NCBI GenBank assembly: GCA_965224245.1
Contig: OZ245046.1
Span: 64,001-128,000, forward strand
Direction: 5' to 3'
Source of the DNA: Candidatus Eiseniibacteriota bacterium
GTDB taxonomy: Bacteria; Eisenbacteria; RBG-16-71-46; CAZAMP01
Length of the DNA stretch: 64,000 bases
A model generated the notes under the pieces. It was not told the origin of the DNA. It saw only the letters and a list, made by a program, of their open reading frames with translations, and did not search any database. The position numbers and the translations under genes are program-made. Of this stretch, positions 21,701 through 52,280 are shown piece after piece. Each line of letters opens with the position of its first letter. Position 1 is the stretch's first letter.

Positions 21701-21987
21701 GCGATGCGACGACCCAGCTCCGGGTCGTGTGCCTCGTAGACGATGCCCATGCCACCTCGGCCGATCTCGCGCAGCACACGATACTTCCCGATCTCGGCGG
21801 GCGGCGCCTCGCTGCCACGAGGCGGGGCGAGAAACGTCGGCGCTTCCTCGAATGCTGCCAGCAGCTCGATCACGCGCTGCTTCAGGATCTCGTCGCCGCC
21901 GCAGGTCCGGGCGAGGTGCTCCGGTCGCTCATCCGGGTCGAGCTCGACGAGCTCGTTGAAGAGCTCCGCGGCACGGTGCGGGCTCAT
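18730..21987 (-). CDS. Cytoplasmic Ser/Thr kinase-STAND ATPase-TPR protein (STK2)
   Basis: [19 protein letters not shown]; Walker A GHGGAGKT; Walker [20 protein letters not shown]-terminal TPR-like helices; no TM segment seen. Confidence 0.92.
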
Positions 21988-22616
21988 GACCCCCCCGACC
22001 GGGAGCCCGGGTCGTCCACACCGTCGTCGCGGAGGATTTCCCAGAGAAACGCCCGCGCATAGCGCCAGTCCCGGACGACGGTCCGCAGCGAGACCTCGAG
22101 TACGTCCGCGACCTCCTCGTGTGTGAGTCCCGCGAAGTAGATCAGCTCCACGCTCCGGGCCGCGCGAGGCGACTCCTCGGACAGCTGCATCAGGGCCTCT
22201 TCGAGCGCGAGCAGGTCCGGCGTGGAGCTCTGTGCGGGTGTGACCGAAGCCGACGATAGCGGAACGCGATGGCGATCGCTTCCCCGCTTGGCCGCCGCAT
22301 GCGCTCGCGCATGGTCGACCAGAACGCGACGCATCGCCGTGGCCGCCAGCGCGAGCAGATGCCGGCCGTCGTCGATCCGAGAGCGACGCTGGCTCGCCAG
22401 GCGCAGGTAGGCCTCGTGTGCGAGAGCCGTGGTCCGCAGTGTGTGGTCGGAGCGTTCCCAGCGCATGAGCTGGCTGGCCAGGCCCCGGAACTCGGTGTAG
22501 ACCCGGGGCAGGATCTGGTCGAGCGTCGTCGGCGCGTCGGCGGTCGCGTGCGTGACCACGTCACGCACGAAGCGATCGACGAACGCGTTGGCTTCCGGGT
22601 CGGGGCCGGGCGACAT
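21984..22616 (-). CDS. ECF sigma factor, TIGR02999-like (ECF1)
   Basis: HTLRTTALAHEAYLRL, AMRRVLVDHAR, AAKRG, VELIYFAGLT, SLRTVVRDW; 4-bp ATGA overlap with STK2. Confidence 0.93.
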   Translation of the reverse strand: MSPGPDPEANAFVDRFVRDVVTHATADAPTTLDQILPRVYTEFRGLASQLMRWERSDHTLRTTALAHEAYLRLASQRRSRIDDGRHLLALAATAMRRVLVDHARAHAAAKRGSDRHRVPLSSASVTPAQSSTPDLLALEEALMQLSEESPRAARSVELIYFAGLTHEEVADVLEVSLRTVVRDWRYARAFLWEILRDDGVDDPGSRSGGS

Positions 22617-22954
22617 GGACGCGTCTCCTGACGGTTCTATCCCGGCGAGTATACCTCATGCGATCGGGAGAATCTGACCACGGCTCTGCACGCTGTGCAT
22701 CGTGGTCTGCGGAAACTACGTACTCGGTGTAAGTAGTCGGCTCGTCGTCGTCGAGAACGGCGTCTCTCGCGATGACCGGATATCATGTGACTCGGACCGT
22801 ACGATGGCGGCCCGGGCGCCTCGGTTTTGGTGCTCTCGTCATCGTGGAGGCGGCGGCGAGTAGCTCACCGTCTCCACGTCCACGAGGAGGCCGTCGAGGT
22901 GTTCTCGCAGTGCGGGATCAACCGACGTCTGCATCCGACCACCGAGGTGCTTCT

Positions 22955-23664: not shown

Positions 23665-23810
23665 GATGGCTCCACGGAGTTGAACATCGTTGGCAAGCCA
23701 ATGAGCGGGCGAACATACCACGACGTCGGCGACGGCCATGTCTCGAAACGTCACGACGTCGCCAGGTCACCCTTCACGAAGCCTGGGGGACACCGGCCTC
23801 GTCAACGGAA

Positions 23811-24491: not shown

Positions 24492-24892
24492 GTCGACGAG
24501 CCGGGCCTGTTCTTCGGATCACTCACACGGACGATCGAGTGGGATGATAGGCGACGACGTCGAGGCTGCGCAGCGGAATCCAGGCCGCCGCGCGTGCCGA
24601 GAGAGTGCCCGAGCGGCATGCGCCCCGAGCGCGAGCTTGCCTCGACCGAGTCACAACCGACTGGAACACATGGACTTCGTGGTGCGGTCACTCAACCGGT
24701 CCGACCAGCCCCCTGATCCAGGTCTTGATCGTCTGGCTCAACCAGCGGCGACGGGGGGAGAGCGACCACCTCAGGATATACGGTATTCCGCGCCGGACGA
24801 CTTGCGCGCCGCCGACCTCGGCGAGTAGCGTTGTGGCAACTCCCTTCCGTGTCGATGGACGAGTTGCTGCGAACGTCCGGAGGCAAGGCAAC

Positions 24893-26538: not shown

Positions 26539-29500
26539 ATGTCCGCTGACATCCCCCCAGCGGAGGACGCGCTCGTGCACCCGGATCGCCTCGTTCGCCT
26601 GAAGACGGTGCTCACTCATGCGAGGAGCCTCCCGGACGCCGAACGCCGCGTGTTTCTGGAGGTCGCGTCGCGGGACGAGCCCGAGATCGCTCGAGACGTC
26701 GACGTGCTGCTGGCGCACGACGTCGATCCCGACGACATCCGCCTCTTGCTGCCCTTCCTTCGTGGTACCTCGACGCGTCCGGACAGTCTCCCTCCCGACG
26801 CGCACAACGCCCGGGTCTACCGGCTCTTCGACGAGGTGGTCTCGCTCGAGGGCGCCGAGCGTGAGAGCCATCTCGAGCACGAATGCTCCGATGAGCCGGA
26901 CGTACGCCGCGAGGTCGAGAAGCTCCTGGCGCTTGCCGTGGAGACGGCGGACCTACCCGTTCGCCCACTGGTGGAGCAGACTGCGGGCACGCCGACGGGC
27001 GGCCGGCTGTCAGGTGCGGTCAGCGTCCCCGAGCAAGTCGGTCGGTACCGTGTCGTGGGTACGCTCGGTTCCGGCGGCATGGGCGTCGTGTACCTGGGTG
27101 AGGATGACACGCTCGGCCGGCAGGTTGCGATCAAGATGGTGCACGGTGTGTCCTCGGGGCAGGAGCGCGCGCTGCGGCGCTTCGAGAAGGAGGCACGCCT
27201 TCTCGCGAGCCTCAATCATCCGAACATCGCGACGCTCTACTCGCTGGAGAGAGAGCCACCCCACGTGTTTCTCACGATGGAGGTGATCGAGGGGTGTTCG
27301 CTCGCCGAGCGATTGCAGGATGGTCCTCTTCGGATCGACGAGGCGCTCGCCGTCGGGCGAGAGCTGGCACTCGCGATCGAAGCGGCACATGCACGCGCGA
27401 TCGTACACCGGGATCTGAAGCCTTCGAACGTGATGCTGACCACCGCGGGTACGGTGAAGGTGCTGGATTTCGGTCTGGCCAAGCTCGCCGAGGTGGCCGA
27501 CGCCGTCGCGTCTTCCGGCGAGACGGGTGCCTCGATGCCCGGCGGAGCCACGGAAGTAACGCTGACCCGCGTGGCCGGTACCCCCGGCTACATGAGCCCC
27601 GAGCAGGTGCGCGGCGAGAGCGCGGACCATCGCGCCGACATCTGGGCATACGGCTGTCTCCTCTACGAGATCCTGACCGGCAACCGAGTGTTCGGTGGGA
27701 GCACGGCGGACGCGCGACTTCATGCCACGCTCGCGCTCGATCCCGACCTGGAGAGACTCCCGAAGGACGTCCCTACCGCGATCCGTGAGCTCGTGGCTTC
27801 CTGCCTGCAGAAGGACATCACGACTCGACTCGGATCGATCGTCGAGGCTCGTCGCGTGATCACGCGGACCATCGAGGCGCGCAAGCGATCCACCACGACC
27901 CGGAGGATGCGCGTTCTCTGGACCGTGACCGCGTTGCTGGTGGTAGCCGTCGTCTCGCTCCTCCTGGTTCGCGGCACAGCCGTCGACGAGGGACCCGTCG
28001 CAACACAGCTCACGCGTCGCCCGGCGGACGTGTACATCAACCATGCGGAGATCTCGCCAGATGGTCGCTCGGTGCTGATTTGTGAGTCAGGACGACCCGT
28101 TCTCTTGCAGGACATCGAGACGCAGGTGATGAGGGAGCTTCTGCTTCCCGAGGGAACGCGATCGTCAGGAACCATCGCGATCTGGCATCCGACCCGCGAC
28201 GTCGTGTTGACGCCTCTCTGGAAAGACACCGAGTACGACATGTGGTTCGTATCGCCGAGTGGCGGCGGAGAGCTGGCGTTTCCGGAGCTCGACCGCCAGT
28301 CGATCGGGGGCTCGTGGTCTCCGATGCTGGACCTCGCGATGTCGCCGGATGGACGGCTTCTGCTCAACAAGGGTCCGGGACACGGTACGTGGATCATCGT
28401 GCCCGGTGAGACGGCTGCCCGGCAGATCCTACCCGGCGTGAGCCTGGCGTCAGCCACCTGGAGTCCGACGGGCCAGGTCATTGCCTTCAAGGAGTCGGCG
28501 TCCGGGGTCAGCGTGGTCACGATGGACGCGGACGGAAACACGCATGTGATCATCGAGCCGTCCGACGGCCGTCTCGCGGCGGCGCACCTGAACATGGGCG
28601 AGCTGAGATCGCTTTTGTGGCTACCCGACGGTCGACTGATCTTCACACGAGCGATGGCTCCACCCGACGCGAAGAGTACGGAGCTGTGGTCGGTCGAGGT
28701 CGAACCCACGACGGGTGTCCGACTCGGAGATCCCGAACGGTTCGCGGGCTGGGTGCAGTGGGTCGCCGGGAATGTTACGAGCTCGCGTGCGGGGGACCGC
28801 CTCGCGCTGATCCGCAGGCGCACTGACGACGAGGTCCTCCGCATGGCGCTCGCCGAGGACGGCCGCTCCGCCGGTGAGCCGGTACGGGTGACGTTCGACT
28901 ACCGATCCGATCGCCCCGGAGTCTGGACGCTCGACGGGCGATACCTGTTTGCGTCGGAGCGATACGGAACGTATGACGTGCTGGCGACGACGGACGGTTC
29001 GACGGCGCCCCGGAAGCTCCTGACGGGTCCGGACGACGAACGCCCGATCTGCCTGACACCGACCGGTTCGCACGTTCTCGTCCGTGTCTCCGAGCCGGGG
29101 CGTCACTGGCTTTCGTCGGGCACCAGCATGCTGCTTCGCGTGCCGCTGAGCGGGGACCAGGAACCGAGCCCCGTCATGACGCTCGATCCCAACGAGGAGA
29201 TCGCGTGTGCGACCGACCCGGACGGATCGTGTGTGCTGATGAGGTTCAGAGATGCCGAGGTCGCGTTCCACCGGCTCGACGATTCGTGGCAGCCGGATCG
29301 CGTACTCGGCCGCACGGACATCGACGAGCTGCAGGGCTGGTTTGGATTCGACTGGGCGCTGTCGCCGGACGGACACGAGATCGCGGTCGTCTACCAGGAC
29401 GGACGCGCGCGATTCCTCGACGTCGCCTCGGGAACCTGGCGAGAAGTGAGAGCCAGCAGAAGGGGCTGGGACCACATCACGTATGCGAACGACGGGGAGA

Positions 29501-29694
29501 GCCTCTACATCACGCGATGGAGCAGCCGTGCGCCGACGATCGACCGCCTCTGGCACGACGGCACGTGGGAGACGGTATGGGACAACCACTACGGGCATTG
29601 GATGTCTGCACCGCAGGTGTCTCCCGAGGGTGACGAGCTGAGGTTTGGCATCAGGTTCAACGATGGCGACGTCTGGATGCTCGAGAAGTTCTGA
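26539..29694 (+). CDS. Membrane Ser/Thr kinase with beta-propeller sensor and duplicated N-terminal module (STK3)
   Basis: GSGGMGVVY, HRDLKPSN, DFGLAK, GTPGYMSPE; TM segment VLWTVTALLVVAVVSLLLV; SPDG repeats. Confidence 0.93.
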   Translation: MSADIPPAEDALVHPDRLVRLKTVLTHARSLPDAERRVFLEVASRDEPEIARDVDVLLAHDVDPDDIRLLLPFLRGTSTRPDSLPPDAHNARVYRLFDEVVSLEGAERESHLEHECSDEPDVRREVEKLLALAVETADLPVRPLVEQTAGTPTGGRLSGAVSVPEQVGRYRVVGTLGSGGMGVVYLGEDDTLGRQVAIKMVHGVSSGQERALRRFEKEARLLASLNHPNIATLYSLEREPPHVFLTMEVIEGCSLAERLQDGPLRIDEALAVGRELALAIEAAHARAIVHRDLKPSNVMLTTAGTVKVLDFGLAKLAEVADAVASSGETGASMPGGATEVTLTRVAGTPGYMSPEQVRGESADHRADIWAYGCLLYEILTGNRVFGGSTADARLHATLALDPDLERLPKDVPTAIRELVASCLQKDITTRLGSIVEARRVITRTIEARKRSTTTRRMRVLWTVTALLVVAVVSLLLVRGTAVDEGPVATQLTRRPADVYINHAEISPDGRSVLICESGRPVLLQDIETQVMRELLLPEGTRSSGTIAIWHPTRDVVLTPLWKDTEYDMWFVSPSGGGELAFPELDRQSIGGSWSPMLDLAMSPDGRLLLNKGPGHGTWIIVPGETAARQILPGVSLASATWSPTGQVIAFKESASGVSVVTMDADGNTHVIIEPSDGRLAAAHLNMGELRSLLWLPDGRLIFTRAMAPPDAKSTELWSVEVEPTTGVRLGDPERFAGWVQWVAGNVTSSRAGDRLALIRRRTDDEVLRMALAEDGRSAGEPVRVTFDYRSDRPGVWTLDGRYLFASERYGTYDVLATTDGSTAPRKLLTGPDDERPICLTPTGSHVLVRVSEPGRHWLSSGTSMLLRVPLSGDQEPSPVMTLDPNEEIACATDPDGSCVLMRFRDAEVAFHRLDDSWQPDRVLGRTDIDELQGWFGFDWALSPDGHEIAVVYQDGRARFLDVASGTWREVRASRRGWDHITYANDGESLYITRWSSRAPTIDRLWHDGTWETVWDNHYGHWMSAPQVSPEGDELRFGIRFNDGDVWMLEKF

Positions 29695-29712
29695 CCACCC
29701 GCGGGGGGGAAC

Positions 29713-30285
29713 ATGGCCGACAGGGACATTCCGATCACGCAGCTGCTGAACCGCGCGGGAGGGGGGGACGAGAAGGCCGCCGCGCTCGTTCTCTCCGAGC
29801 TGTACGAGAAGCTGAGAGGCCTGGCCAGGGCTCAGCGCGCTCGCTTGCGTCCCGGCGAGACGATGGACACCACAGCCCTCGTGCACGAAGCATATGTCCG
29901 GCTGGTCGATCGACGCACGGTGTCCTGGAACGGGCGACATCACTTCTACTGCACGGTTGCCCGGTCGATGCGGGATCTTCTCGTGGAGGAGGCACGACGG
30001 AAGCGGTCGCTCAAGCGTGGTGGCGATCAGCAGCGGGTCACGTTGCGCGACATCGCGGCCGTCGTAGATGCGGCTCCCGAGCGCGTGCTGGCGCTGGAAC
30101 AGGTGCTTCAGCGGCTCGAGCGCGATCATCCGGACAAGTACCAGGTCGTCATGTTGCGCTACTTCACCGGTCTCACCGTCCCGGAGATCGCGGAGGTTCT
30201 CGACATATCCGTGAGCAGCGTCGAGCGGCGCTGGCGCTTCTGCCGCTCGTGGCTGTTCCGGGAGCTGGGAGAGAGTGACGCCTGA
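29713..30285 (+). CDS. ECF sigma factor, TIGR02999-like (ECF2)
   Basis: ITQLL..AGGGD, TMDTTALVHEAYVRL, KRGG, LRYFTGLT; starts 18 nt after the STK3 stop. Confidence 0.93.
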   Translation: MADRDIPITQLLNRAGGGDEKAAALVLSELYEKLRGLARAQRARLRPGETMDTTALVHEAYVRLVDRRTVSWNGRHHFYCTVARSMRDLLVEEARRKRSLKRGGDQQRVTLRDIAAVVDAAPERVLALEQVLQRLERDHPDKYQVVMLRYFTGLTVPEIAEVLDISVSSVERRWRFCRSWLFRELGESDA

Positions 30286-32184: not shown

Positions 32185-35100
32185 TCAGGATGGACCCTCC
32201 GAGAATATCGCCTGAACCTCCTCGACGCTCAACGAGCCACAGTAGACGCGAACGTCGTCGATGGTCCCGTCGAAGTGCTCGAGCGGCCGCAGGGTCTTGA
32301 ATGCATCGCGGCCTACCAGAAGTGGGGCGTCCGGATCGATCGCGCTCTGGTCGGGGAGCGGTGCTCGTCCCAGGAGTGCGCCGTCCAGGAAGAAGGATAC
32401 CGAGCGCGTATCGCTGTGGAAGGCCACTCCGATGTGCCGGGCTCGCGAGAGCAGCTGAGCTTCCACCGCGAACTGCCGATACGTCGTCGTGAATCCACCT
32501 GCGGCGAACGGATGTCGCAGCGTCAGCGTCAGGGTGGTGAGGCCGATCGATAGCGACCAGCCGGAGCCGGAAAGTCGATTCCCGCGCTCGTGTGCAAGGA
32601 GTGTCTGGGATCCGTCCTGCGCCCCCGGACCGAACCATCCTAGAATGGTGAAGCTCTGAGCGTCGACGAGACAGTCGGGAACGTCGTCGACTCTGAGAAC
32701 GGCGGTAGGTCCCTCGAGCGAGAAGACGTGTCCCGTCCCTTCCACACGGACCGACGCGCCGTTCTCCAGGCGTCCATCATGCGAACCGATCACGTCACTG
32801 GCCCCCCGGGTCGCATTCCACTGGGCGACGAGCGTGCCATGCGCCGAGTCGATCGCATCGGGAAGAGATCGCGCCGGTGGGCGCGCACCGTCGTCATTCT
32901 CCGTTGACGATCGCTCCGGAGCTCGCGTCGACTCGCTGGTTCGACCGCGTGGGTGTCTGTCCCAGATCTTGACCGTCCCGTCCCTGGAGGCCGATACGAG
33001 CGAACCATCGCGCGAACAGTCCATGTCGACGATCCGATTGGCATGAGCGTCGACCTGCACGATCTCCGTGAGCGAGGTGCCATCCAGTATGTGCAGGACT
33101 CCCGTCGTCGAGCCCAGGAAGAGCCTGCTTCCATCGGAGGAGAAGCCCACCGAGGTGACACTACGGCCGTCGATCACCGTGTCGGATCGGTCAGCTCCGG
33201 TGCAGGGCAGCACACGCACCGCGCCGTCCGCGTAAGCCACGGCCAGCGTGGCTCCATCCGGCGTCGCGGCGACATCCACCACCGCGGCCGCATGCGAGTC
33301 CAGCATCTCGGCGGGATGCCATCCGCTGCACGGCCAGCTGAACACGCGCCCGTCATCGGTTCCCGTGACGAGACGGGATCCGTCCGGAGTGAACAGCGCT
33401 GCCGTCACCAGAGAGGGATGTGGAAGCGGGTCGGCCGCAGGATCCATCGAGCCGAGCGTCCAGATCCTGACGAGGGGCTCGCTGCCCGCAGTGACGTAGA
33501 GATCCTCGGTGGGATGAGTTGCGACCACGAGCACCTGCTCGGGGTCCGCCTGAAAGCAGTGAACGGGGGCTCCGCGGCGATGGCTCGACACGGAGACGAC
33601 GCCGTGCAGCAGCGCGGCGACCAGGTGGTCGCCGTCGTGGGCGAACGCCAGCGCCCGGCAGTCTATGGGCTCGACTCCGGGAATCTGACGCCCGTCGGAT
33701 CCGGCGCCGATGTCCCAGACCCCCGGCAGGTCTCCATCGTGCGCGGCGACCACGGAGCCTCCATCCGGCGTGAACGTCACGCAGATCGGCCACGTCGGTC
33801 GCCACTTGCGGGATGCTCTCCATGTCGGGATGTCGGTCGCGCCCACGTTCCACATCCGCAGGTCACCGCGATCGTCCCCGCTGATGACGGTACCGCCGTC
33901 GGGAGTCAGCGCGAGTGCGCGAACCGGAGTGCGGTGTCCCCTGAGGATGCGTGTCAGAGAGCCACCGGCCACCGACCAGGCGAGCACTCGCCCGTCGTCG
34001 GATACCGAGAACACCTCGTCGCCCGACGGCGAAAAGGCGAGATCGTTCACACCGCCTACATCCCCCGGGAGCGCGGCGACGACGTTTCCGCTCGCGATCT
34101 CCCGAATGATGACCGGGCCTTCCCGGACGATCGCCGCAAGTCGGCCGCCGTCGGGGCTGAACGACACCGCCTCGACTCCTCGACCCATCTGTGGCCACGC
34201 GGACACGCGTGTCCAGGTGGTCGTGTCCCAGAGTTCGATGGTCTGCCGTGCCGTTGCCAGCAGGTCCCCACCGGGCTGAAACGCGACGCCGTGAAGTCGG
34301 ACATGAAAGGGTGCCACCCCGTCCTCGCCGTCGAGCCCGACCTGTGACGGCTGGATCACGGCGACGGGACTCGACAGGTCCGAGAGCGGTGAGACGTATA
34401 CCCGGCCGTCGAGGACGCCCACCGCCGCGTACTCCCCGGCCCCGTCGACGGTGACCTCGCTCCAGAGCATGTCCGGCGCTCCGTCGATCGCTTCGGCTGT
34501 CTCGACGTTCCAGAGAACGACACCCTCGGGATGAGCACTCGTCGGTTCGACGTAGCCGACCAGGATGTGGCGTCCATCCGGCGCGAAGTCGAGGCTCAAG
34601 ACGCCGTGAGCCCACGTCTCCGCGTCGTCCCGTCTCAACGTCCGGATGTGCGACGAGTCCTCGAGATCCCAGATCTTGACGGTCCCATCATAAGAGCCGG
34701 ATGCGAGCCGGGCGCCGTCGGGAGAGACGGCGAGTGCGGTCACCCAGTGATCGTGGCCGTGCCACGTCGCGTAGCTACCGTCGAGGCGACCGTACAGATG
34801 ATCCCACTCCCATCCACGAAGGGAAGGAGGTGCATCGTTCAGCGCCCGTTCCGCCGAATCGAGCTGGTTCGCGAGGATCGCCTTCTCCGCGGCCGCGATG
34901 CTCGCGGAGTACGCGAGTCGTCTCGCGGTCTCCGCTTGCTGCTGGGCACGCGAGTACTGGGTCAGAGCCACGACCAGTCCGACGGCCAGGGCGAGGACGA
35001 TTCCCACGACGCTCGTGACCAGAGCCCGTTGCTTTCGCACGAAGACGCGCGTTCGGTAGCGAAACGTGTCCGGTCGCGCCGTGACGGTGGATCCGTCGAG

Positions 35101-36192
35101 GTGACGTCGAATGTCCTCGCCCAGCTCGTCCGCGGATCGGTAACGATCGTTCGGGTCTTTTCGCAGCGCCTTCGTGAGGATCGTGTCGACGTCGCCTCTC
35201 AGCCGTCGCCGGCGCTGCCGTGCCGACCTCGATTCCCAGGCGGCACCCGAGGGCAGCCGCGCGCTGGCCCGCGGAGGCGTGTCCTCGCAGATGGCCCGGT
35301 CGAGCTTCCACGTATCGACCTCGGACACCTCGTACGGTGAGCAACCCGTCAGAATCTCGTAGAGGACGACCCCGAGCGAGTACACGTCCGTCGCGGGGGT
35401 CACCCGCTCGCCTCGGATCTGCTCGGGGCTGGCATAGCGAGGGGTCAACATGCGGAGTCGCGTGACCGCCTGCTCGGCGACGTCACTCGGATCCAGGATC
35501 TTCGCCAGTCCGAAGTCGAGCAGCTTCACGTGTCCGGAGCGGTCGACGAGGATGTTGGAGGGCTTGAGATCGCGATGGACGATGAGATTGCGATGTGCGG
35601 AGCTGACCGCGGCGCAGACGGCGCGGAAGAGCTCGAGACACTCGCGTGTGGAGAGTGCGGCGGTGTGGCAATGCTCGTCGATGGGGCGGCCGTCCACGTA
35701 CTCCATGACGATGTACGGAACGCCCTCCTCGGTCGCGCCGCCGTCCAGAAGCCGGGCGATGTTGGGATGATCGAGGCTCGCGAGCACCTGCCGCTCGGTG
35801 CGAAAGCGATCGAGCATCACCTCCGCCACGAGCGCGGACCGCAGGAGCTTGATCGCGACCTGCTTCTCGTACTCGGCGTCGCTTCGCTCCGCCAGATAGA
35901 CGGCTCCCATCCCACCCGTCGCGATGAGTGACCGGATCGTGTAAGAGCCGACTCGCGTACCCACGGGGAACTCGTCGAGCGCACGGATCGCCGCGGCCAG
36001 ATCGGCCTTCGCCGCCGACGGATCCAGGGTATCGCCCACCGCCTCGTGGGCCCTCAGCAGGGAGCGAACCTCCTCCAGCAGCTCCGAATCTCCGGCACAT
36101 ACCCGGTGGAGAAAGCCATCACGTTCCTCGGCCGGAAGGCCGAGCGCGTCGTGGAAGAGCGTCGCGGCGTCTGACGAGTTCTGGTCGTTCAT
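32185..36192 (-). CDS. Membrane Ser/Thr kinase with WD40 repeats and C-terminal LamG/ConA-like domain (STK4)
   Basis: GGMGAVY, HRDLKPSN, DFGLAK, LTPRYASPE; TM segment; GH...SGSYDGTVKIWD repeats; terminal FDGTIDDVRVY..SLS.EEV. Confidence 0.93.
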   Translation of the reverse strand: MNDQNSSDAATLFHDALGLPAEERDGFLHRVCAGDSELLEEVRSLLRAHEAVGDTLDPSAAKADLAAAIRALDEFPVGTRVGSYTIRSLIATGGMGAVYLAERSDAEYEKQVAIKLLRSALVAEVMLDRFRTERQVLASLDHPNIARLLDGGATEEGVPYIVMEYVDGRPIDEHCHTAALSTRECLELFRAVCAAVSSAHRNLIVHRDLKPSNILVDRSGHVKLLDFGLAKILDPSDVAEQAVTRLRMLTPRYASPEQIRGERVTPATDVYSLGVVLYEILTGCSPYEVSEVDTWKLDRAICEDTPPRASARLPSGAAWESRSARQRRRRLRGDVDTILTKALRKDPNDRYRSADELGEDIRRHLDGSTVTARPDTFRYRTRVFVRKQRALVTSVVGIVLALAVGLVVALTQYSRAQQQAETARRLAYSASIAAAEKAILANQLDSAERALNDAPPSLRGWEWDHLYGRLDGSYATWHGHDHWVTALAVSPDGARLASGSYDGTVKIWDLEDSSHIRTLRRDDAETWAHGVLSLDFAPDGRHILVGYVEPTSAHPEGVVLWNVETAEAIDGAPDMLWSEVTVDGAGEYAAVGVLDGRVYVSPLSDLSSPVAVIQPSQVGLDGEDGVAPFHVRLHGVAFQPGGDLLATARQTIELWDTTTWTRVSAWPQMGRGVEAVSFSPDGGRLAAIVREGPVIIREIASGNVVAALPGDVGGVNDLAFSPSGDEVFSVSDDGRVLAWSVAGGSLTRILRGHRTPVRALALTPDGGTVISGDDRGDLRMWNVGATDIPTWRASRKWRPTWPICVTFTPDGGSVVAAHDGDLPGVWDIGAGSDGRQIPGVEPIDCRALAFAHDGDHLVAALLHGVVSVSSHRRGAPVHCFQADPEQVLVVATHPTEDLYVTAGSEPLVRIWTLGSMDPAADPLPHPSLVTAALFTPDGSRLVTGTDDGRVFSWPCSGWHPAEMLDSHAAAVVDVAATPDGATLAVAYADGAVRVLPCTGADRSDTVIDGRSVTSVGFSSDGSRLFLGSTTGVLHILDGTSLTEIVQVDAHANRIVDMDCSRDGSLVSASRDGTVKIWDRHPRGRTSESTRAPERSSTENDDGARPPARSLPDAIDSAHGTLVAQWNATRGASDVIGSHDGRLENGASVRVEGTGHVFSLEGPTAVLRVDDVPDCLVDAQSFTILGWFGPGAQDGSQTLLAHERGNRLSGSGWSLSIGLTTLTLTLRHPFAAGGFTTTYRQFAVEAQLLSRARHIGVAFHSDTRSVSFFLDGALLGRAPLPDQSAIDPDAPLLVGRDAFKTLRPLEHFDGTIDDVRVYCGSLSVEEVQAIFSEGPS

Positions 36193-36329: not shown

Positions 36330-36899
36330 TTGTCACGACGCCACGACTTCACCGACCTGCTGCGAGCGACCGCCAGCGGTGACCCGTCCGCCGCCGCGGA
36401 CATGATTCCTGTCGTCTATGGTGAGCTTCGCCGTCTCGCGCAGTCCTATCTGGCCGGCGAGAGACCGGACCACACGCTACAGGCCACCGAGCTGGTCCAC
36501 GAGGCGTATCTTCGACTCGTCGACCAGACCCGCGCACGAATCAACGACCGCGGGCACTTCATGGCACTCGCGGCGACGGCCATGAGGCGGGTCCTGGTGG
36601 ATCATGCCCGGCGTCGCGGAAGCCGCCGGCGCGGCCGAGGTGCGGCGACGCTGCCGCTCGACGAGGCCGCGACGGTCACGGCCGATCCATTACGGATCGA
36701 CTATGTCGCACTGGACCGCGCGCTCGACGAGCTGGCGGGTGTCGCTCCGGACTCGGCGAAGGTCGTGGAGCTGCGCTTCTTCTCCGGACTCACGGTTGAC
36801 GACGTGGCCACCTGCATCGGTGTCTCGTCGAGAACGGTGAGGCGACACTGGACATACGGGCGTGCCTGGCTCCACAGGCGCCTGAACGAGCCTGCCTAG
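36330..36899 (+). CDS. ECF sigma factor, TIGR02999-like (ECF3), divergent from STK4
   Basis: FTDLL..TASGD, HTLQATELVHEAYLRL, AMRRVLVDHAR, VELRFFSGLT; TTG start after a GAGGA RBS. Confidence 0.92.
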   Translation: MSRRHDFTDLLRATASGDPSAAADMIPVVYGELRRLAQSYLAGERPDHTLQATELVHEAYLRLVDQTRARINDRGHFMALAATAMRRVLVDHARRRGSRRRGRGAATLPLDEAATVTADPLRIDYVALDRALDELAGVAPDSAKVVELRFFSGLTVDDVATCIGVSSRTVRRHWTYGRAWLHRRLNEPA

Positions 36900-37009: not shown

Positions 37010-37145
37010 CGTCGAACGGTCGGAGCCGTCCTTCTCCAGTCCCCGCTCCTGCTGGCGACGTTCTCGGCCGAGGTTCATGACGGGTATCGGTGCCGCATCC
37101 AGTCCGCTCCGGACGAGATCGGCCCACCGTCCGCATGGGGGTGTC

Positions 37146-42831: not shown

Positions 42832-43118
42832 GGATCGAGCTCTGGACGGCGTCCACTACATCCCGGGCCGGACACGGATCGTCGCCTCCAGCGCTGGCCC
42901 GTCGGGCAGCAGCCCCGATGACGACTCGAGCACGTCTTCCTCGAGACGAGTTGCAGTTTCCTGCCTCGGATTTCGAACTGTCTTACGGACGGGATGGCGG
43001 GACGCCGCGTCGGCGCCCCATCCCGGCCACGGCATTGAGTCATCCGGTCTCCCGGCCGAGCCACTCTCACCGGGAACCGGCGCTCGAACAGTGGAACTCC
43101 GACGGAAAGGAACCCGAA

Positions 43119-43757: not shown

Positions 43758-43772
43758 TGGACGCACTGGATG

Positions 43773-44239: not shown

Positions 44240-44326
44240 CGCCCCGTGAGTGAGTTGCCCATCTCCGGCTCCTTCTGGCGCTTCAGGTCGATGAGGGTTT
44301 CGTTCTCTCGAGGAAGACATCGAGCA

Positions 44327-47300
44327 ATGCGCCGACCACCGCACGACGAGAACTCGGTCGAGAACGCCGAAGCCGAGAGCGTGTTGGGCCCCGGTCACTC
44401 GACGATGACGCGTCGTCTCGAACCGCGACAGCTGCTCTCCGGCCGGTTCCGCATCGAGGCATTCGTCGCCGGTGGAGGAATGGGGCAGGTCTATCGCGCT
44501 CACGACCTGGAGCTCGACGTCCCGGTGGCGCTGAAGACCATCCACCCGGAGATAGCGTCCGAACCGGCGTCCCTGCGCCGGTTCAAGCGTGAGGTCCTTC
44601 TGGCACGCTCGGTCACTCATGCGAACGTGTGCCGGATCTACGATCTCTGGCACGACGATGTCACCCAGGCCACGTTTCTCACCATGGAGTTTCTCTCCGG
44701 GCAGACGGTCGGCGAACGGATTCGGGCGCGGGGCCCGTTCTCGCCCGAGGACGCGCTTCCGCTGGTTCACCAGATGTGCATCGCGCTCGATGCCGCCCAT
44801 CGGGCGGGAGTCGTCCACCGCGACTTCAAGAGCTCCAACGTGATTCTGGTGCCCGACGGCGGGGGATACCGGGCTGTGATCACGGACTTCGGCGTGGCGA
44901 TCTCCGTCGAGCCTCACGTGGCCGCAAGGCGATCGACGATGGGCGGGGAGGCCCGTATCAGGAACATCGACGCCGGCGACGTCACCGAGCGACTGAACGC
45001 TACGCAGGCGTCGAGCCCGGGTATCGTGGGCACGCCCGCGTACATGTCTCCCGAGCAGGTCGTTGGCGGTCCTACGGGCCCACAGAGCGATCTCTACGCG
45101 CTGGGTGTCGTGATCTTCGAGATGCGAACCGGTCGGTTGCCATTTCGCGGTGCTTCACCGATCGAGACCGCACTGGCTCGTCTGCGATCCGATCCGCCGA
45201 GCCCGAGTACGTTCGCGGACGTCGACGAGGTCTGGGAACGCGTCATCCTTCGCCTCCTCTCGAGAGATCCGGGCGATCGGTTCCCGACCGCCCGCGAGGT
45301 CGTCTCGGCGCTCGAGCGCGAGGACTGTCCCCATCATGAGATCCGACACTCGCTTCCGGCCGAGCGAGATACGTTCCTCGGAAGAGAAGAGGAGCTCGCC
45401 GATCTCGGCTCACGCCTGGAGGGACCCGAAACGGGCCGCCTCGTCACCCTCCAGGGCGCCGGCGGCACAGGCAAGACCCGCCTCGCGCAACGGTACGGAT
45501 GGGAGAGCCTCGTGCGCTGGCCCGGAGGCGTGTGGTTTTGTGATCTCTCCGAGGCCCGAAGTCCGGACGGCATCGCGCGCACGGTCGCCGAGGTGCTCGA
45601 CGTACCATCGATGTCCGGGGACACGGTGACCCGGATCGGGCACGTGATCGCCGCCCGGCAGAGGTGTCTGTTCGTCCTCGACAACCTCGAGCAGGCCATC
45701 GATCACGTCGAGTCCACACTGGGGTGCTGGCTCGCGGGCACGCACGATGCCCGTTTCCTCGTCACGAGTCGCGAGCGTCTGCGGCTCGAGGGGGAAGTGG
45801 TGATGGCCCTGGAGCCCCTCGATCCGGCTAGCGAGGGGCTGAAGCTGTTCGAGCTCCGCGCGCAGGCCCAGCGACCGGGCTTCGTCATCGACGAGTCCAC
45901 CCGCGCGCAGGTCGAGAGGATCGTAAGAAGGCTGGACGGGCTGCCGCTGGCGATCGAGCTGGCGGCCTCTCGCCTGCGGATGATGACGCTTGCCCAGCTC
46001 GAGCGACGTCTCGACGACCGCTTCCGGGTTCTGGTGGGTGGGAACAGGGGGCGTCACATGACCCTCGTCGCGACGCTGGACTGGTCCTGGGAGCTGCTCG
46101 AGCATTACGAGCAGTCGACCCTCGCACAGGCGTCCGTCTTCGACGGAGGGTTCACGCTGGAGGCGGCCGAAGCCGTGATCGACGGTCCCGGAGACGACCC
46201 GAGCGGATCGGTGCTCGACGTTCTCCAGTCCCTCATCGACAAGAGCTGGCTACGAGTTCGGGTCGAGGGAGTGGTTCCCCGGTTCGAGGTGAGCTCGACC
46301 GTGCAGGAGTACGCCGCGTCCAAGCTGGCCACGATCAGCCAGGCCTCCCCGGCCCGGCCGTCCCGCGACGCCGCCGAGGCGGCGCACGGCATGTACTTTG
46401 CGGCACTCGGCTCCCGGGAGTCGATAGAGCGGCTCGATCTCGTCGATGAGGAGGATCACCGGAGGTCCTTTCGCGCGGAGCTCGACAACTTCGTCGTCGC
46501 CTGCCGGCGCGCCGCGCGGCGGGGGGAAGAGGACGTGGCGGTCAGTGCGTATGCCGCCACGATGGCGGCGCTCCAGGTTCGAGTCGGGCGGGTGGGGGTG
46601 GTGTCACTCGGCCAGAGAGTCATTGAGATCGTCCGGAATCCGGAGAATCGGAGCCGGGTCGACGTAGTTCTCGCGATGGCGAAGCGCATCGCGGGCGATA
46701 CGAAGGGAGCGCGGTCACACCTGGAGACGGCCCTGGCCGAGGTGCACGGGAGAGGCGACCGACGCCGTGAGGGACACGTCCTCGCGTCACTGGGCAGGGT
46801 CGAGCTCGAGCTGGGAGAGACATCCCGCGCCTACCGGAGCTTCAGTGATGCCCTCGACGTCGCCCGATCGGCCGGGTGCCCGATCGTCGAGGGAGTGGCG
46901 CTCCGCGGTCTCGGGAACATCGACCGAGCGAAAGGGCAGCTGCCGGAAGCACGCCGCAAGCACGAGGACGCCCTGGCGATCTTCAGGAGGGTCGGAGCCC
47001 TTCGTGAAGAGGGTTTCACGCTGGTCGCTCTGGGCAACCTCGCGCGCGTGGAGGGCAACTACGAGGAGGCCAGGGGGTGCTTGTGGCGCGCCCTCGAGAT
47101 CCACCGGCGATTCGGGGACCCGCGTGCGCGGTCCATGGTGCTGTCCGCCCTGGGCATCGTGTCCAGTCTTCAGGGTCAGCTCGATGATGCGCGGAATCGG
47201 TTCGAAGCTGCGATGGCCATCGCTCGTGACACCGGCGATCGCATCGACGAGGCCGTCGCGATGAACAACCTCGGCAACATCGCGGAGATGCAGGGACGAA

Positions 47301-47908
47301 TCGAGGATGCACGAGACCTCTTCCAGCGGGCGCTTCACATTTACCGTGAATCCGGCGAGCGGAGTCGCGTGGCGATTGCGCTGCTGAATCTGAGCAGCAC
47401 CCATCGCAGGCTGGGACGACTCGAGCCCGCTCGGGAATGCGTCCAGGACGCGCTGCTCATGTTTCGGGAGCTCGGCGAGCGGCTTCGTGAGGGCGTCGCC
47501 CTGAGCAGTCTCGCCGAGATCGATCGTGAAGACGGCCGGCTCGAGCAGGCGATCACCGGGTTCGAGGCGGCACTGGCGATTCACCGCCTCACCGGAAACA
47601 GACGCCTCGAAGGAATGGTGCTCCGCGATCTCGGAGACATCCACGCCGAACGCGGGAGCCTCGACGTCGGTCTCCGGTGCGTCGAGGAGGGGGTGTCGAT
47701 CCTGCGGGATGTCGAGGCGATCTCGGAGCTGGCAGCAGCGGTCGCCGTGATGGGGCGTGTCCAGCTTCGACGGGGCGAGCTCGACGGGGCCAGGGCGAGC
47801 CTCGAAGAGGCAGAGCACATGGTGAGAATGCAGGGAATCGAGACGTCATCCGATCTGCGGCTCGGAATCGAAGCACTCCGCGAGGCACTCGATGATCCCG
47901 CCCCGTGA
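44327..47908 (+). CDS. Cytoplasmic Ser/Thr kinase-STAND ATPase-TPR protein (STK5)
   Basis: GGMGQVY, HRDFKSSN, DFGVA, GTPAYMSPE; Walker A GAGGTGKT; Walker [19 protein letters not shown]; many ~40-aa TPR repeats. Confidence 0.92.
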   Translation: MRRPPHDENSVENAEAESVLGPGHSTMTRRLEPRQLLSGRFRIEAFVAGGGMGQVYRAHDLELDVPVALKTIHPEIASEPASLRRFKREVLLARSVTHANVCRIYDLWHDDVTQATFLTMEFLSGQTVGERIRARGPFSPEDALPLVHQMCIALDAAHRAGVVHRDFKSSNVILVPDGGGYRAVITDFGVAISVEPHVAARRSTMGGEARIRNIDAGDVTERLNATQASSPGIVGTPAYMSPEQVVGGPTGPQSDLYALGVVIFEMRTGRLPFRGASPIETALARLRSDPPSPSTFADVDEVWERVILRLLSRDPGDRFPTAREVVSALEREDCPHHEIRHSLPAERDTFLGREEELADLGSRLEGPETGRLVTLQGAGGTGKTRLAQRYGWESLVRWPGGVWFCDLSEARSPDGIARTVAEVLDVPSMSGDTVTRIGHVIAARQRCLFVLDNLEQAIDHVESTLGCWLAGTHDARFLVTSRERLRLEGEVVMALEPLDPASEGLKLFELRAQAQRPGFVIDESTRAQVERIVRRLDGLPLAIELAASRLRMMTLAQLERRLDDRFRVLVGGNRGRHMTLVATLDWSWELLEHYEQSTLAQASVFDGGFTLEAAEAVIDGPGDDPSGSVLDVLQSLIDKSWLRVRVEGVVPRFEVSSTVQEYAASKLATISQASPARPSRDAAEAAHGMYFAALGSRESIERLDLVDEEDHRRSFRAELDNFVVACRRAARRGEEDVAVSAYAATMAALQVRVGRVGVVSLGQRVIEIVRNPENRSRVDVVLAMAKRIAGDTKGARSHLETALAEVHGRGDRRREGHVLASLGRVELELGETSRAYRSFSDALDVARSAGCPIVEGVALRGLGNIDRAKGQLPEARRKHEDALAIFRRVGALREEGFTLVALGNLARVEGNYEEARGCLWRALEIHRRFGDPRARSMVLSALGIVSSLQGQLDDARNRFEAAMAIARDTGDRIDEAVAMNNLGNIAEMQGRIEDARDLFQRALHIYRESGERSRVAIALLNLSSTHRRLGRLEPARECVQDALLMFRELGERLREGVALSSLAEIDREDGRLEQAITGFEAALAIHRLTGNRRLEGMVLRDLGDIHAERGSLDVGLRCVEEGVSILRDVEAISELAAAVAVMGRVQLRRGELDGARASLEEAEHMVRMQGIETSSDLRLGIEALREALDDPAP

Positions 47909-48808: not shown

Positions 48809-49107
48809 CATCTCGCGGGCTCGGCGCCCGCGCACGGTGAGCGGGAGTACGACATGCTCGTCGAGTTCCTTGCCGACTCGATGCTGAACGGAGGCATGCA
48901 CTGGTCAGTGTTCTCGACGAGACGGCGTCCGTGATCGGGGAGACGGTGCAGCCCACATTGCCCGTGTCGGGCCATCCCTGGTACCACGTGACCGCGCGGG
49001 ACTTCGCCGGCAACGAGGGGGAGGCGTCCAGCATCGAGGACCAGCTGGGAATCCCTGGAGCGCCACTGCCCGCGACGTACGCGCTCCGCCCGATCGCGAC
49101 ATCCTAG
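48809..49107 (+). pseudogene. Relic fragment of a secreted CTD-type protein (internally deleted, truncated)
   Basis: First frame reads APAHGEREYDMLVEFLADSMLNGGMHWSVF. The frame changes at 48913 to LDETASVIG...WYHVTARDFAGNEGEASS...LPATYAL, with a stop at 49105-49107. No start codon or RBS. Confidence 0.6.
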
Positions 49108-52100
49108 TCCCAGATTCGAACGGTGCCGTCGCGCGATGCGGTGACCAGTGCGCCCGTCGACCGATCCTCGACCATGTCGAGGATCCCGCCGAAGTGCCCG
49201 CTCAGCCGGACGAGCTCCGTGTAGCTGCTCGTCTCGTAGATCCGGACCACTTCGTCCACGCCGCCCACGGCGATCCGCGTCCCGGCCGCGAGGTAGGTCG
49301 CGGCGTTCATCGCCGCGGAGTGTGCCATCAGGACGGCGATCGACGTGCCGTCGGTGGCGTCCCAGATGCGTGCACTCCCGTCCGCCGACGTGGTGACGAG
49401 CTCCCGACCCGACGGAGCGAAGACGATGCTCGTCACGGAGTCCTCGTGTGCCGCCAGCGTGGTGATCGGCTGCATCGTGTCGGCATCCCGAAGGATGACG
49501 CGGCCGTCGTCGTCGCCCACGGCGAGACGGCGTCCGTCGGGCGAGAAGGCGATCGCACCGACGCCATCGGACCGAACCTCGGCGAGAAGATCACCCTTCA
49601 CGCTCACGACGCGCAGCCCTCCGTCCGCGCACGCGAGCGCCATGCGATCGTCGGCGGGATCGGCCGCCAGCACGCGAACGACCTCGGTCTCGAGTATCGC
49701 CTCGAGCGCCTCGTCGGGCATGAGAACGACGGCGACGTCACCGTCGTCGAGGGGAAGAAGCAGGCGGCTCCCGTCGCCAGTGACGGCGAGACCGTGAGCC
49801 AGGGGAGACTCCAGCGGCGCGTGGCGGACGCGTGTGTGACGATCGAACACCTCGAGCTCTCCCGAAACGACGGCCACCCAGCGACCCATCGGGTCGACCG
49901 CCACCGCCTCGGCGATCGGAATGCTCATTCCCGAGGTGGCCAGATGGAGCGTTGGAACGTCCGCGGCATCTCGATCGAAGACGAGCAGCGTGCCGTCCCA
50001 GGCTCCGGCTGCGACGTGTCGTCCGTCCGGCGAGAACGCGACCGCGAACACATCCGATTGATGACCCCGCAGTCGTGCGAGCAGGTTGCCTGTCGCCGAG
50101 TCCCAGCGGAGAACCCGACGATCCGCGCCGGAGCTGACGAGATCCGTTCCGAGAGGATCGAACGCGAGCCCCGTGACCGTGGCATCGTGACGACCGAAGA
50201 CGACGGGGGGAGCATCGTCACCGAGTCGCCACACGCGTGCTGTTTGATCCATCGACCCACTCGCCAGGAGATCGCCCGAACCGGAGCTGGCGAGACTGAT
50301 CACGCGGCGAGTGTGTCCTTCCAGCGCTCGCTGGGGCTCGAACGTGTCGGGATCGACGATCCACAGTCCCCTGCTGGTGCCGACGGCGAGTCGCTCGCCG
50401 GAGCCGAGATAGAGCGGGAGCGCGAAGTAGCCGTCGAGACTCGCCCGGCCAAGCACCCGACCCTCCGGGATCGAGAGCGTGGCCAGGTCTCCACGGTATA
50501 GCCCGGCGACCAGGCTCTTGCCGGAGGGATGGAAGCAGACGCGCGCCCAGCCGTCGCCCCGATACAGCTCGACCGGGTCGTTCGCGGATGGAGTCGTCGC
50601 ATCCGTCAGGAGGACACGACCGTCGTTGAGACCCGCCGCCAGCCACGTGCCGTCGGGCGACAGGTCGATGGACTCGACGGCCGCGCCCAGCGGGCCGATC
50701 TCGGTCAGAGGGCGGCCCTCGTCGCGAGTGTGGCTCACGATCCGCCCGTCGATGCCACAGGACCATACGACCGTCCCGTCCGGCGTGAAGGCGATGTCCG
50801 TCACGCCCCCCTCGTGCGCCGGGAATGAGCGCTCGCTCCGGTCCAGGCGTCCGGCCAGATGGTTCCACTCCCATCCTCTCAGAGCGGCAGGTGCACGCTC
50901 GAGCTGCCTCCGTGCCTCGTCGATCTGATCGGCGCGGAGCGAGGACTCCGCGGCAGAGAGGCTGGCTGCATAGGCGATCCGTTCGGCCTCCCGTCTCGCC
51001 ACGGTTGCCCGATGCGACTGGATCGTCGTGGCGACGAGCCCGATCACGAGCGCCAGCAGGACAGCCAGCGCGCCCGCCACGATCGGACGGTTCCGTCTCA
51101 GCAGCGTGCTGACCCGGTAGCCCAGCGTGTCCGGTCGAGCCTGGATCGTGTGTCCGTCCAGGTGCCGCCGGATGTCGCTCGCGAGCTGCTCGACGCCGAC
51201 GTACCGCCGCTCGGGATCCTTGTGCAGGGCGCACGCGACGACGTTGTCGAGGTCCCCGCGGAGCGCCCGCCGGAGCGCGTCCACCCCGGTGGATCGGGCG
51301 GCGGCGATGGACGAACGCGTTCCCACCTCTGCCGCCACCACGGCGTCCGACATGGCGGGCGGCTCGGATTCCGTGACCACGCGCTCGATCTCGGCCGCGC
51401 TCCCGCCCTCGAACACGTACGGCCGGGCGCCCGCGAGCAGCTCGTAGAGGACCACGCCGAGGGCGTAGACATCCGTCGCGATGGTGATGATCTCTCCCCG
51501 GACCTGTTCGGGGCTGGCGAACTCCGGGGTGAGCAATCGCTCCATGGACATCGTACGCACGAGCACGGGCTGGTCGACGTCGAGGAGCTTGGCGATGCCG
51601 AAGTCGAGGAGCTTCACGGTACCGTCGCCCGTCACGAGGATGTTGCTCGGCTTCAGATCCCGGTGAATCACGAGCCTGGAGTGGGCGTGCTGCACGGCCG
51701 CACACACCGACAGGAAGAGTCGCAGCCGCGCGCGGATGTCCAGGTGTTCTGCGTCGCAGTACACATCGATGGGCCGGCCGTCGACGTACTCCATGACGAG
51801 ATACGGAAGCCCGTCCCCGGTCTCTCCACCGTCCAGGAGCTGGGCGATGTTGGGGTGAGTGAGTGACGCGAGGATCTGGCGCTCGCTCCGGAATCGAGCG
51901 ATGCGGCTCGAGTCCACGAAGCCGCCGCGAACGACCTTGATGGCCACCCGGTGCTCGTACAGTCGATCCGCGCGGCGGGCACGATAGACCGTGCCCATGC
52001 CTCCTCGACCCAGCTCCGTCTCGATCTCGTAGGGACCCAGCCGGTGCGGCGTCGGGGCGTCGAGCGCCGTATCGAGGCCGGCCCGGGCCTCCTCCGCGAT

Positions 52101-52280
52101 GACGCGCCCGATGAACGAGTGCGCGTCCGGATGGGACGCGAGCAGGGACTCGACCTCAGATCGGATCCGGGGGTCCTCGGAACTCGCGTCGAGGAATGCC
52201 TGGCGTCGTGACGGAGGCAGCTCCAGGGCGTCATGAAAGAGGCGCTCGACACGCTCCCACGACGCGGAATCGAACGTCAT
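49104..52280 (-). CDS. Membrane Ser/Thr kinase with WD40 repeats (STK6)
   Basis: GRGGMGTVY, HRDLKPSN, DFGIAK, LTPEFASPE; TM segment; WD40 repeats ending ASRDGTVRIWD; ATG at 52280 overlaps the ECF4 stop. Confidence 0.93.
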   Translation of the reverse strand: MTFDSASWERVERLFHDALELPPSRRQAFLDASSEDPRIRSEVESLLASHPDAHSFIGRVIAEEARAGLDTALDAPTPHRLGPYEIETELGRGGMGTVYRARRADRLYEHRVAIKVVRGGFVDSSRIARFRSERQILASLTHPNIAQLLDGGETGDGLPYLVMEYVDGRPIDVYCDAEHLDIRARLRLFLSVCAAVQHAHSRLVIHRDLKPSNILVTGDGTVKLLDFGIAKLLDVDQPVLVRTMSMERLLTPEFASPEQVRGEIITIATDVYALGVVLYELLAGARPYVFEGGSAAEIERVVTESEPPAMSDAVVAAEVGTRSSIAAARSTGVDALRRALRGDLDNVVACALHKDPERRYVGVEQLASDIRRHLDGHTIQARPDTLGYRVSTLLRRNRPIVAGALAVLLALVIGLVATTIQSHRATVARREAERIAYAASLSAAESSLRADQIDEARRQLERAPAALRGWEWNHLAGRLDRSERSFPAHEGGVTDIAFTPDGTVVWSCGIDGRIVSHTRDEGRPLTEIGPLGAAVESIDLSPDGTWLAAGLNDGRVLLTDATTPSANDPVELYRGDGWARVCFHPSGKSLVAGLYRGDLATLSIPEGRVLGRASLDGYFALPLYLGSGERLAVGTSRGLWIVDPDTFEPQRALEGHTRRVISLASSGSGDLLASGSMDQTARVWRLGDDAPPVVFGRHDATVTGLAFDPLGTDLVSSGADRRVLRWDSATGNLLARLRGHQSDVFAVAFSPDGRHVAAGAWDGTLLVFDRDAADVPTLHLATSGMSIPIAEAVAVDPMGRWVAVVSGELEVFDRHTRVRHAPLESPLAHGLAVTGDGSRLLLPLDDGDVAVVLMPDEALEAILETEVVRVLAADPADDRMALACADGGLRVVSVKGDLLAEVRSDGVGAIAFSPDGRRLAVGDDDGRVILRDADTMQPITTLAAHEDSVTSIVFAPSGRELVTTSADGSARIWDATDGTSIAVLMAHSAAMNAATYLAAGTRIAVGGVDEVVRIYETSSYTELVRLSGHFGGILDMVEDRSTGALVTASRDGTVRIWD

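Follow-up and report, generated by a model that had tools for sequence, protein, structure and literature searches.

A three-helix module ahead of Hanks-type kinases, a candidate docking domain for partner ECF43 sigma factors

The closest described systems are EcfK-PknS of Xanthomonas citri and EcfP-PknT of Vibrio parahaemolyticus. They share with the genes described here the same family of extracytoplasmic function (ECF) sigma factors, called ECF43 in the literature, a threonine in region 2.2 of the sigma factor and a kinase encoded next door. Region 2.2 of ECF43 sigma factors is described as lacking the acidic DAED-type motif and as carrying a conserved phospho-acceptor threonine (PMC8999054, PMC13147305), and PknS phosphorylates the ECF43 sigma factor EcfK (PMC13147305). 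PDB entry 9EED is PknS(1-364) of X. citri; the PknS paper describes an 83-residue N-terminal segment as «conserved among Xanthomonadaceae homologs», states that it «may play a functional role», and reports three to four helices on a flexible linker as its AlphaFold2 prediction (PMC13147305). No function is assigned to this segment in the literature found by full-text search. The present analysis concerns a stretch of 64,000 nucleotides (the window, i.e., G000:C1:64001-128000) from a Candidatus Eiseniibacteriota genome (G000, 6.94 Mb, 67% GC), and more precisely a module of about 45 residues found at the N-terminus of four of its Hanks-type kinases. The numbering of the kinases (STK) and sigma factors (ECF) is that of a first-pass annotation of the window.

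The module and the N-terminal segment of PknS are homologous. The module profile (alignment A1) matches residues 8-54 of PDB chain 9eed_A with E 1.3e-9 and 40.8 bits, the next match having E 1.4, and in both cases predicted helices (three in the module, three to four in PknS) are followed by a flexible linker to the kinase. The differences are that: (i) the window kinases have WD40, PD40 propeller or STAND-TPR sensors, PknS a periplasmic TPR; (ii) at least 31 sigma-kinase pairs are found in this genome, versus one in EcfK-PknS; (iii) the PknS paper describes a segment conserved in Xanthomonadaceae, while the family described here is coupled to ECF43, spans phyla and has a predicted face for sigma-4. 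That ECF43 sigma factors partner with kinases, and that PknS has an N-terminal extension, was already known. As far as the literature searched goes, the family-wide domain, its coupling to ECF43, the putative sigma-4 site and the candidate pairing positions appear to be new. On the basis of sequence comparison and modelling, it is fairly probable that the module docks sigma-4 of the cognate ECF43 sigma factor beside the catalytic domain and carries part of the specificity of the pair.

All four ECF43 genes of the window adjoin a Hanks-type kinase gene. The kinases, modules and sigma genes are the following (window coordinates).

STK1, 12588-15821, minus strand: Hanks kinase with a PD40 beta-propeller; comparison kinase, nearest ECF43 6.6 kb off (Pfam)
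STK2, 18730..21987, minus strand: module, Hanks kinase (Pkinase E 1.1e-43, residues 69-319), STAND NTPase (AAA_16/NB-ARC) and TPR, with TPR_12 and NB-ARC matches
STK2 module, 21826..21987, minus strand: first 54 residues; domain E 1.7e-11 after iteration; aligned in A1
ECF2, 21984..22616, minus strand: ECF43-type sigma factor; TIGR02999 186.4 bits, PF07638 E 1.6e-45
STK3, 26539..29694, plus strand: two modules, Hanks kinase (Pkinase E 1.3e-50, residues 170-432), membrane span and beta-propeller tail
STK3 module copy 1, 26578..26745, plus strand: domain E 1.5e-9; aligned in A1
STK3 module copy 2 (kinase-proximal), 26794..26961, plus strand: domain E 2.7e-13; aligned in A1
ECF3, 29713..30285, plus strand: ECF43-type sigma factor; TIGR02999 195.6 bits, PF07638 E 4.7e-51
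STK4, 32185..36192, minus strand: module, Hanks kinase (Pkinase E 1.3e-46, residues 84-352), WD40 propellers (WD40 E 2.7e-51) and Laminin_G_3
STK4 module, 36022..36189, minus strand: N-terminal; domain E 1.9e-13; aligned in A1
ECF4, 36330..36899, plus strand: ECF43-type sigma factor; TIGR02999 203.3 bits, PF07638 E 3e-55
STK5, 44246..47908, plus strand: Hanks kinase with NB-ARC and TPR; comparison kinase, nearest ECF43 4.4 kb off (Pfam)
STK6, 49104..52280, minus strand: module, Hanks kinase (Pkinase E 2.7e-43), membrane span and WD40 propellers (WD40 E 1.4e-66)
STK6 module, 52107..52280, minus strand: domain E 5.5e-14; copy used in the complex prediction
ECF6, 52277..52846, minus strand: ECF43-type sigma factor; TIGR02999 217.4 bits, PF07638 E 6.1e-57

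The six complete Hanks kinases match Pfam Pkinase with E 4e-36 to 1e-50. The four sigma genes are members of ECF43 (the family of TIGR02999 and PF07638), with 186-217 bits for TIGR02999 (curated cut-off 126.15 bits) and E 1.6e-45 to 6.1e-57 for PF07638. Their region 2.2 motifs read Q-P-T-A, R-T-T-A, D-T-T-A and Q-A-T-E, and the acidic DAED-type motif is absent. The threonine shows no variation in the sigma alignment A2 and is conserved to 90% or more over 56 sequences. The stops of ECF2 and ECF6 overlap the start codons of STK2 and STK6 (ATGA, read directly), 19 bp separate the stop of STK3 from the start of ECF3, and ECF4 and STK4 are divergent, 137 bp apart. The true start of STK6 is the ATG at 52280; the longer open frame up to 52904 overlaps ECF6 in another frame. 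No anti-sigma Pfam match was found among the 8 neighbouring frames scanned beside the ECF43 genes.

The first-pass annotation had described an N-terminal module of about 45 residues in STK2, STK3 (two copies), STK4 and STK6, each next to an ECF gene, and none in STK1 and STK5. This description stands: a profile built from the five copies recovers all of them, each of the four module kinases adjoins a TIGR02999/PF07638 sigma gene, and STK1 and STK5 have neither a module match nor an ECF43 neighbour. The common sensors that it had noted are found as well with Pfam, i.e., beta-propeller (PD40-type) tails for STK1 and STK3, NB-ARC/AAA plus TPR tails for STK2 and STK5. It must be added that a seventh kinase (62473-63999, minus strand) is cut by the right end of the window. 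Its module (C1:128780-128947) and an ECF43 gene (C1:128962-129927) lie just beyond, in the same pattern.

The module constitutes a genuine domain family rather than a motif arisen by chance, since its profile converges with a clean score gap. The profile was seeded with the five proposed copies and iterated over the open frames of the genome in three rounds. The seed recovers the five window copies at domain E 1e-18 to 4e-22; after convergence, 45 module domains are found in 44 open frames, the weakest with E 3.5e-7 and nothing else below 0.1. A search of 1.84 billion representative proteins gives 65,914 matches with E<=1e-3, of which 13,220 reach E<=1e-10, and a kinase domain is present in all 10 database matches scanned. 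Many short database matches look like contig-end fragments, because they stop where the kinase domain would start. As short helical segments with a high content of A, L, E and R, the N-termini could owe their resemblance to chance or to the composition of a GC-rich genome. Such an explanation is hardly credible, and it is refuted by the score gap (domain E to 1e-22, well clear of the noise), the PknS match (E 1.3e-9) and the matches across the whole library.

The consensus of the module (56 sequences, several phyla) comprises P-E-R-W, L-F-x-x-A-L-E, R-x-x-F-L, A-C-x-x-D-x-x-L-R-x-E-V-E-S-L-L and F-L. Its AlphaFold2 model (25-row alignment, mean pLDDT 84.5) has helices at residues 2-16, 20-30 and 34-46. 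The linker to the kinase is poorly conserved and 23-47 residues long. The number and the place of the copies vary, i.e., P0001 of the representative library (1156 aa) has ten tandem modules ahead of its kinase domain and P0129 has two copies behind it. No Pfam model (E<=0.01) covers the residues ahead of the kinase domains in the window kinases, and NCBIfam has no match to the module. A Foldseek search of the PDB with the module model gave generic three-helix bundles, the best with E 2.9 and none of the 89 matches (E<=10) at E<=0.001; this fold search is uninformative and counts against no reading. That the module could be a relic or a mimic of a sigma region was considered and rejected, the profile-profile comparison with the ECF43 sigma factor giving a probability of 0.4%.

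The signalling set of G000 is unusually large for 6.94 Mb: 98 Hanks-kinase frames, 44 ECF43 genes and 31 module-kinase/sigma pairs. The ECF43 genes score at least 109 bits, and the next score is 27 bits. An ECF43 gene lies within 1.5 kb of 31 of the 42 module kinases (none for 11) and of 6 of the 56 module-less kinases (none for 50). The odds ratio is 23 (Fisher p 1.3e-10, 98 kinases). Most often (21 of the 31 pairs) the sigma gene precedes the kinase gene in the same orientation. Sorted by partner, the 44 ECF43 genes comprise 31 with a module kinase, 5 with a module-less kinase, 2 with only a free-standing module gene and 6 with none of these. The first-pass annotation had stated that the module is present only beside ECF genes. 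This holds within the window; genome-wide, with the 11 module kinases lacking such a neighbour and the 6 module-less kinases having one, «only» is too strong, while the enrichment is large.

The same association is found in other genomes. Module and TIGR02999 are both present in the same 12 of 20 relatives and both absent from the other 8, kinases being present in 20/20 (373 matches, summed over the table). An ECF43 gene is located within 300 bp of 49 of the 67 module matches in these relatives, and within 4 kb of 59. The two-by-two table at the level of the kinases covers G000 and the fetched loci. A co-occurrence survey, which the first-pass annotation had proposed as a check, was carried out on 100 genomes sampled evenly from the phylum (counts including one unpublished genome, G028): 63 genomes have module and ECF43, 2 the module only (one of them at E 9.6e-4), none ECF43 only and 35 neither. 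The counts per genome, which add up to 254 modules and 270 sigma genes, are correlated (rho 0.91). Several genera are split, and identically so for module and ECF43 (e.g., g21 3/6, g29 2/4, g9 1/8). It must be noticed that p-values for this sample overstate the association, because related genomes are not independent.

Beyond the phylum, 80 ECF43 loci were gathered with the sigma alignment A2 from metagenome-assembled genomes labelled Gemmatimonadota, Acidobacteriota, Planctomycetota, Gammaproteobacteria, Ignavibacteriales and others. The order sigma, module, kinase (kinase within 700 bp downstream) is found for 57 of the 83 sigma genes of these loci, and it recurs in Acidobacteriota, Planctomycetota and Gammaproteobacteria. 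Among the remaining sigma genes, 3 have a downstream kinase without detectable module, 5 are short of contig and 18 have other layouts.

In four cases examined the ECF43 sigma factor and the kinase are fused: one in G000 outside the window (C1:2978589-2982230, minus strand), two in G005 and one in G020. These fusions (the G000 copy, L101, L102 and L103) are single chains of 1214-1318 residues, of the same sigma and kinase families as the split pairs. In all four the sigma domain stops 28-33 residues ahead of the kinase domain, and no module is found in any of them, even at E<1. From this spacing and this absence, the sigma factor appears to occupy the place of the module, i.e., the covalent tether stands in its stead (4/4). 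Conversely, free-standing module genes of 70-72 residues are located beside ECF43 genes, two in G000 outside the window and one in G006, with no kinase remnant within about 3 kb:

Free-standing module gene, C1:1063441-1063659, plus strand
Free-standing module gene, C1:1212478-1212684, minus strand
Free-standing module gene, L104:4247-4462

Their products may be small competitors or adaptors.

The complex of ECF6 (189 residues, 56-row alignment) with residues 1-64 of STK6 (56-row alignment) was predicted, the cognate half of a comparison suggested at first pass. The interface score ipSAE is 0.70, 0.71 and 0.73, versus 0.00, 0.00 and 0.01 for three controls (0.71 for the cognate pair against 0.01 for the best control). 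The partners have pLDDT of at least 79, and at least 58% of the contacts are common to the runs. The ipSAE mark is reached by 58 of 80 solved complexes and by 2 of 110 mismatched pairs, a calibration that is only rough with user-supplied alignments. On the sigma side, the predicted interface comprises residues 137-139, 172, 175-176 and 178-183, i.e., the last helix of sigma-4, which carries the most conserved C-terminal residues of the family (R172, A177, W180 and L181, in the stretch R-D-W-x-x-A-R-A-W-L). On the module side it comprises residues 2-3, 8, 12, 15-16, 19, 45-50, 52-54 and 56, located on helices 1 and 3 and in the F-L motif; one of them, L46, hardly varies in the family. Only the sigma-4 contacts are confidently predicted, and there is no predicted contact with sigma-2. 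A loss of the docking-helix motif in fused or orphan ECF43 was also looked for and discarded as too weak: the fusions have F or Y for the second W, but so do, with F, several paired sigma factors.

Binding is predicted on the recognition helix of sigma-4 (172-183), and it can be asked whether the module is mainly an inhibitor, which would hold sigma-4 away from RNA polymerase or the -35 element until the kinase fires; the free-standing genes beside ECF43, having no kinase remnant nearby (two here, one in G006), would then encode small anti-sigma proteins. Class I anti-sigma domains (RseA, RsrA and ChrR type) bind sigma-4 and sigma-2. The module resembles them in its small size, in its helical make-up and in its predicted grip on the sigma-4 domain of an ECF sigma factor. 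It differs from them in having three helices, no zinc motif and no predicted contact with sigma-2, and in being located on a kinase that activates the sigma factor, unlike these inhibitors. No Pfam, NCBIfam or PDB fold match places it with the class I models (zf-HC2/RsrA, RseA_N) or with the four-helix anti-sigma domain (ASD) fold. By the tests run, the module belongs to no known anti-sigma family, and the likeness concerns only the predicted target. The term «anti-sigma-like» of the first-pass annotation is not supported as a statement of kinship. Mainly inhibitory action is unlikely, considering that sequestration is not needed to account for ECF43 regulation, that Pfam, NCBIfam and Foldseek reveal no resemblance to the known anti-sigma domains in sequence or in fold, and that the predicted complex shows no contact with sigma-2. 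It must be noticed that inhibition and docking have the binding step in common and differ only in its consequence.

Covariation between module and sigma factor was measured on 98 cognate pairs (31 of this genome, 67 of fetched loci) by mutual information with average-product correction, module columns versus sigma columns. The 24 predicted contacts that could be mapped include ranks 2, 3, 4 and 6 of 10,260 inter-protein column pairs (Mann-Whitney p 2.9e-4), and rank 1 couples module residue 12, which belongs to the interface, with sigma residue 142. Four column pairs (0.39, 0.37, 0.36 and 0.24) are above the maximum of 20 partner shuffles (0.21). For the 42 cognate pairs unseen by the predictor, the contacts include ranks 11, 16 and 51 of 8,413 (p 0.008); when only the 31 pairs of this genome are used, they include ranks 2, 23 and 89 (p 0.029). 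The covarying residues are physically sensible, with compensation of charge and size: F-A 60, L-L 10, L-A 7 and L-M 4 for module 15 and sigma 179; S-R 43, R-D 5 and E-R 4 for module 45 and sigma 183; E-K 22 and K-Q 21 for module 12 and sigma 142. As a control for shared descent, the module was compared with its own kinase domain, and none of 14,079 column pairs is above the shuffle maximum. Between sigma factor and kinase domain, four column pairs are marginally above it (0.217-0.236 vs. 0.206), which may reflect recognition of the substrate by the catalytic domain.

The module could alternatively be a regulatory or dimerization element of the kinase itself, without contact with the sigma factor, the two genes travelling together by joint duplication and inheritance. 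The tree of the 98 kinase domains is partly in line with this: the module label needs 14 changes versus a mean of 31.8 for shuffled labels, and one clade has 25 module kinases out of 26. The 11 module kinases without sigma neighbour and an independent-contrast test that is not significant go the same way. On the same tree, however, the module must have been gained or lost at least 7 times if the well-supported branches are respected. STK5 groups with two module kinases (95% support), which fits the point of the first-pass annotation that sensors and module are shuffled independently. In the fusions the sigma domain replaces the module, and the free-standing copies keep a sigma neighbour without a kinase. 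Lastly, covariation above shuffle is absent between the module and its own kinase domain and present with the separately encoded sigma factor, on coherent helix faces; because of this control a sigma-independent role is unlikely, and the kinase-intrinsic explanation as a whole appears quite improbable.

Several observations weigh against docking. The nearest ECF43 gene of the 11 module kinases (out of 42) without one within 1.5 kb is 4-116 kb away. Six kinases adjacent to ECF43 have no module by the first profile; one of these exceptions is the ECF43-kinase fusion, one is an additional kinase next to a sigma gene already paired with a module kinase, and another has a weak module match (E 7.5e-5) with a deeper profile. 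Six of the 44 ECF43 genes adjoin neither kinase nor module. The independent contrasts within the genome are underpowered and not significant (7 usable pairs, median p 0.125), with ECF adjacency going the same way as the module in 4.4, the opposite way in 0.2 and showing no difference in 2.4, a direction as expected. P0062, a protein of 513 aa that was probably truncated by the end of a contig, combines a C-terminal piece of sigma factor, a module and a kinase in a single frame; fusion and module are thus not always mutually exclusive. The alignments given to the predictor held the cognate rows in the same order; its score may for this reason draw on the same covariation, and its calibration is only rough. 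The covariation measure is a simple one, for 98 pairs that are related to one another. As for PknS, the paper reports that residues 1-81 are invisible in the crystal and that the construct phosphorylating EcfK contained them (PMC13147305). The published data are thus silent on whether the segment is needed. The support for docking is, as a whole, computational.

With these reservations, the proposal of the first-pass annotation that the module recruits the cognate ECF gains support from five independent lines of computation, namely gene neighbourhood, phyletic co-occurrence, fusions, predicted complex and covariation, which favour a docking role. Protein kinases have non-catalytic docking elements beside the catalytic domain that recruit specific substrates. 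The module would be such an element, unrelated to the others in sequence and fold, with a sigma factor as substrate and its DNA-recognition domain as site. The proposed sequence of events is that: (i) a three-helix module of about 45-55 residues would define the Hanks-type kinases that partner ECF43 sigma factors; (ii) the module would bind the last sigma-4 helix of its own sigma factor, as in the predicted complex; (iii) the sigma factor would thereby be kept at a distance of about 30 residues from the catalytic domain; (iv) the conserved region 2.2 threonine of the tethered sigma factor would then be phosphorylated by the kinase; (v) variable residues, i.e., 12, 15, 45 and 49 of the module and 142, 176, 179 and 183 of the sigma factor (STK6/ECF6 numbering), would choose the partner; (vi) such a residue code would keep dozens of paralogous kinase-sigma pairs apart in one cell. 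The analysis shows the domain family, its coupling to ECF43 in gene neighbourhoods and across genomes, the covariation between the two proteins and a confidently predicted interface; binding in the cell, its service to phosphorylation and its effect on specificity are inferred.

A few other genes of the window can be mentioned. STK5 is flanked by a peroxiredoxin gene (AhpC-TSA plus 1-cysPrx_C, 42507-43757, plus strand) and by a gene of the histidine-phosphatase family (48000-48554, minus strand). Several very large predicted secreted proteins have in common a tail of about 80 residues (N-R-P-N-P-F ... V-Y-D-V-x-G-R), which presumably resembles a C-terminal sorting or FlgD-Ig-like domain. They are encoded as follows:

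Tail-bearing protein, 2242-7320, minus strand
Tail-bearing protein, 7545-9842, minus strand
Tail-bearing protein, 15641-18670, plus strand
Tail-bearing protein, 24605-26383, plus strand
Tail-bearing protein, 37077-41804, plus strand

Phosphorylation of a threonine as the means of activating ECF43 sigma factors has recently been established as a signalling route in bacteria. The literature searched does not address the way in which a kinase finds its own sigma factor, and cross-talk is a real problem, since a single genome has 44 ECF43 sigma factors and 98 Hanks kinases. A docking domain with few covarying contacts would be a concrete answer to partner choice, and one that can be tested by mutation. 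In a wider and more tentative proposal, to which somewhat less than an even chance can be given, the module and the last sigma-4 helix would form, through the eight positions listed above, matched in charge and size, a pairing code that insulates dozens of parallel phosphorylation channels in one cell; with tandem or free-standing copies, a single kinase could act on several sigma factors or small proteins could compete for them, and the module would be an undescribed class of domain, found in at least 65,000 protein clusters, that provides the missing step of substrate recognition. A so far unannotated domain, which occurs in tens of thousands of protein clusters, now has a name and a hypothesis, which would permit the prediction of partners for orphan kinases and orphan sigma factors and would provide parts for orthogonal synthetic circuits.

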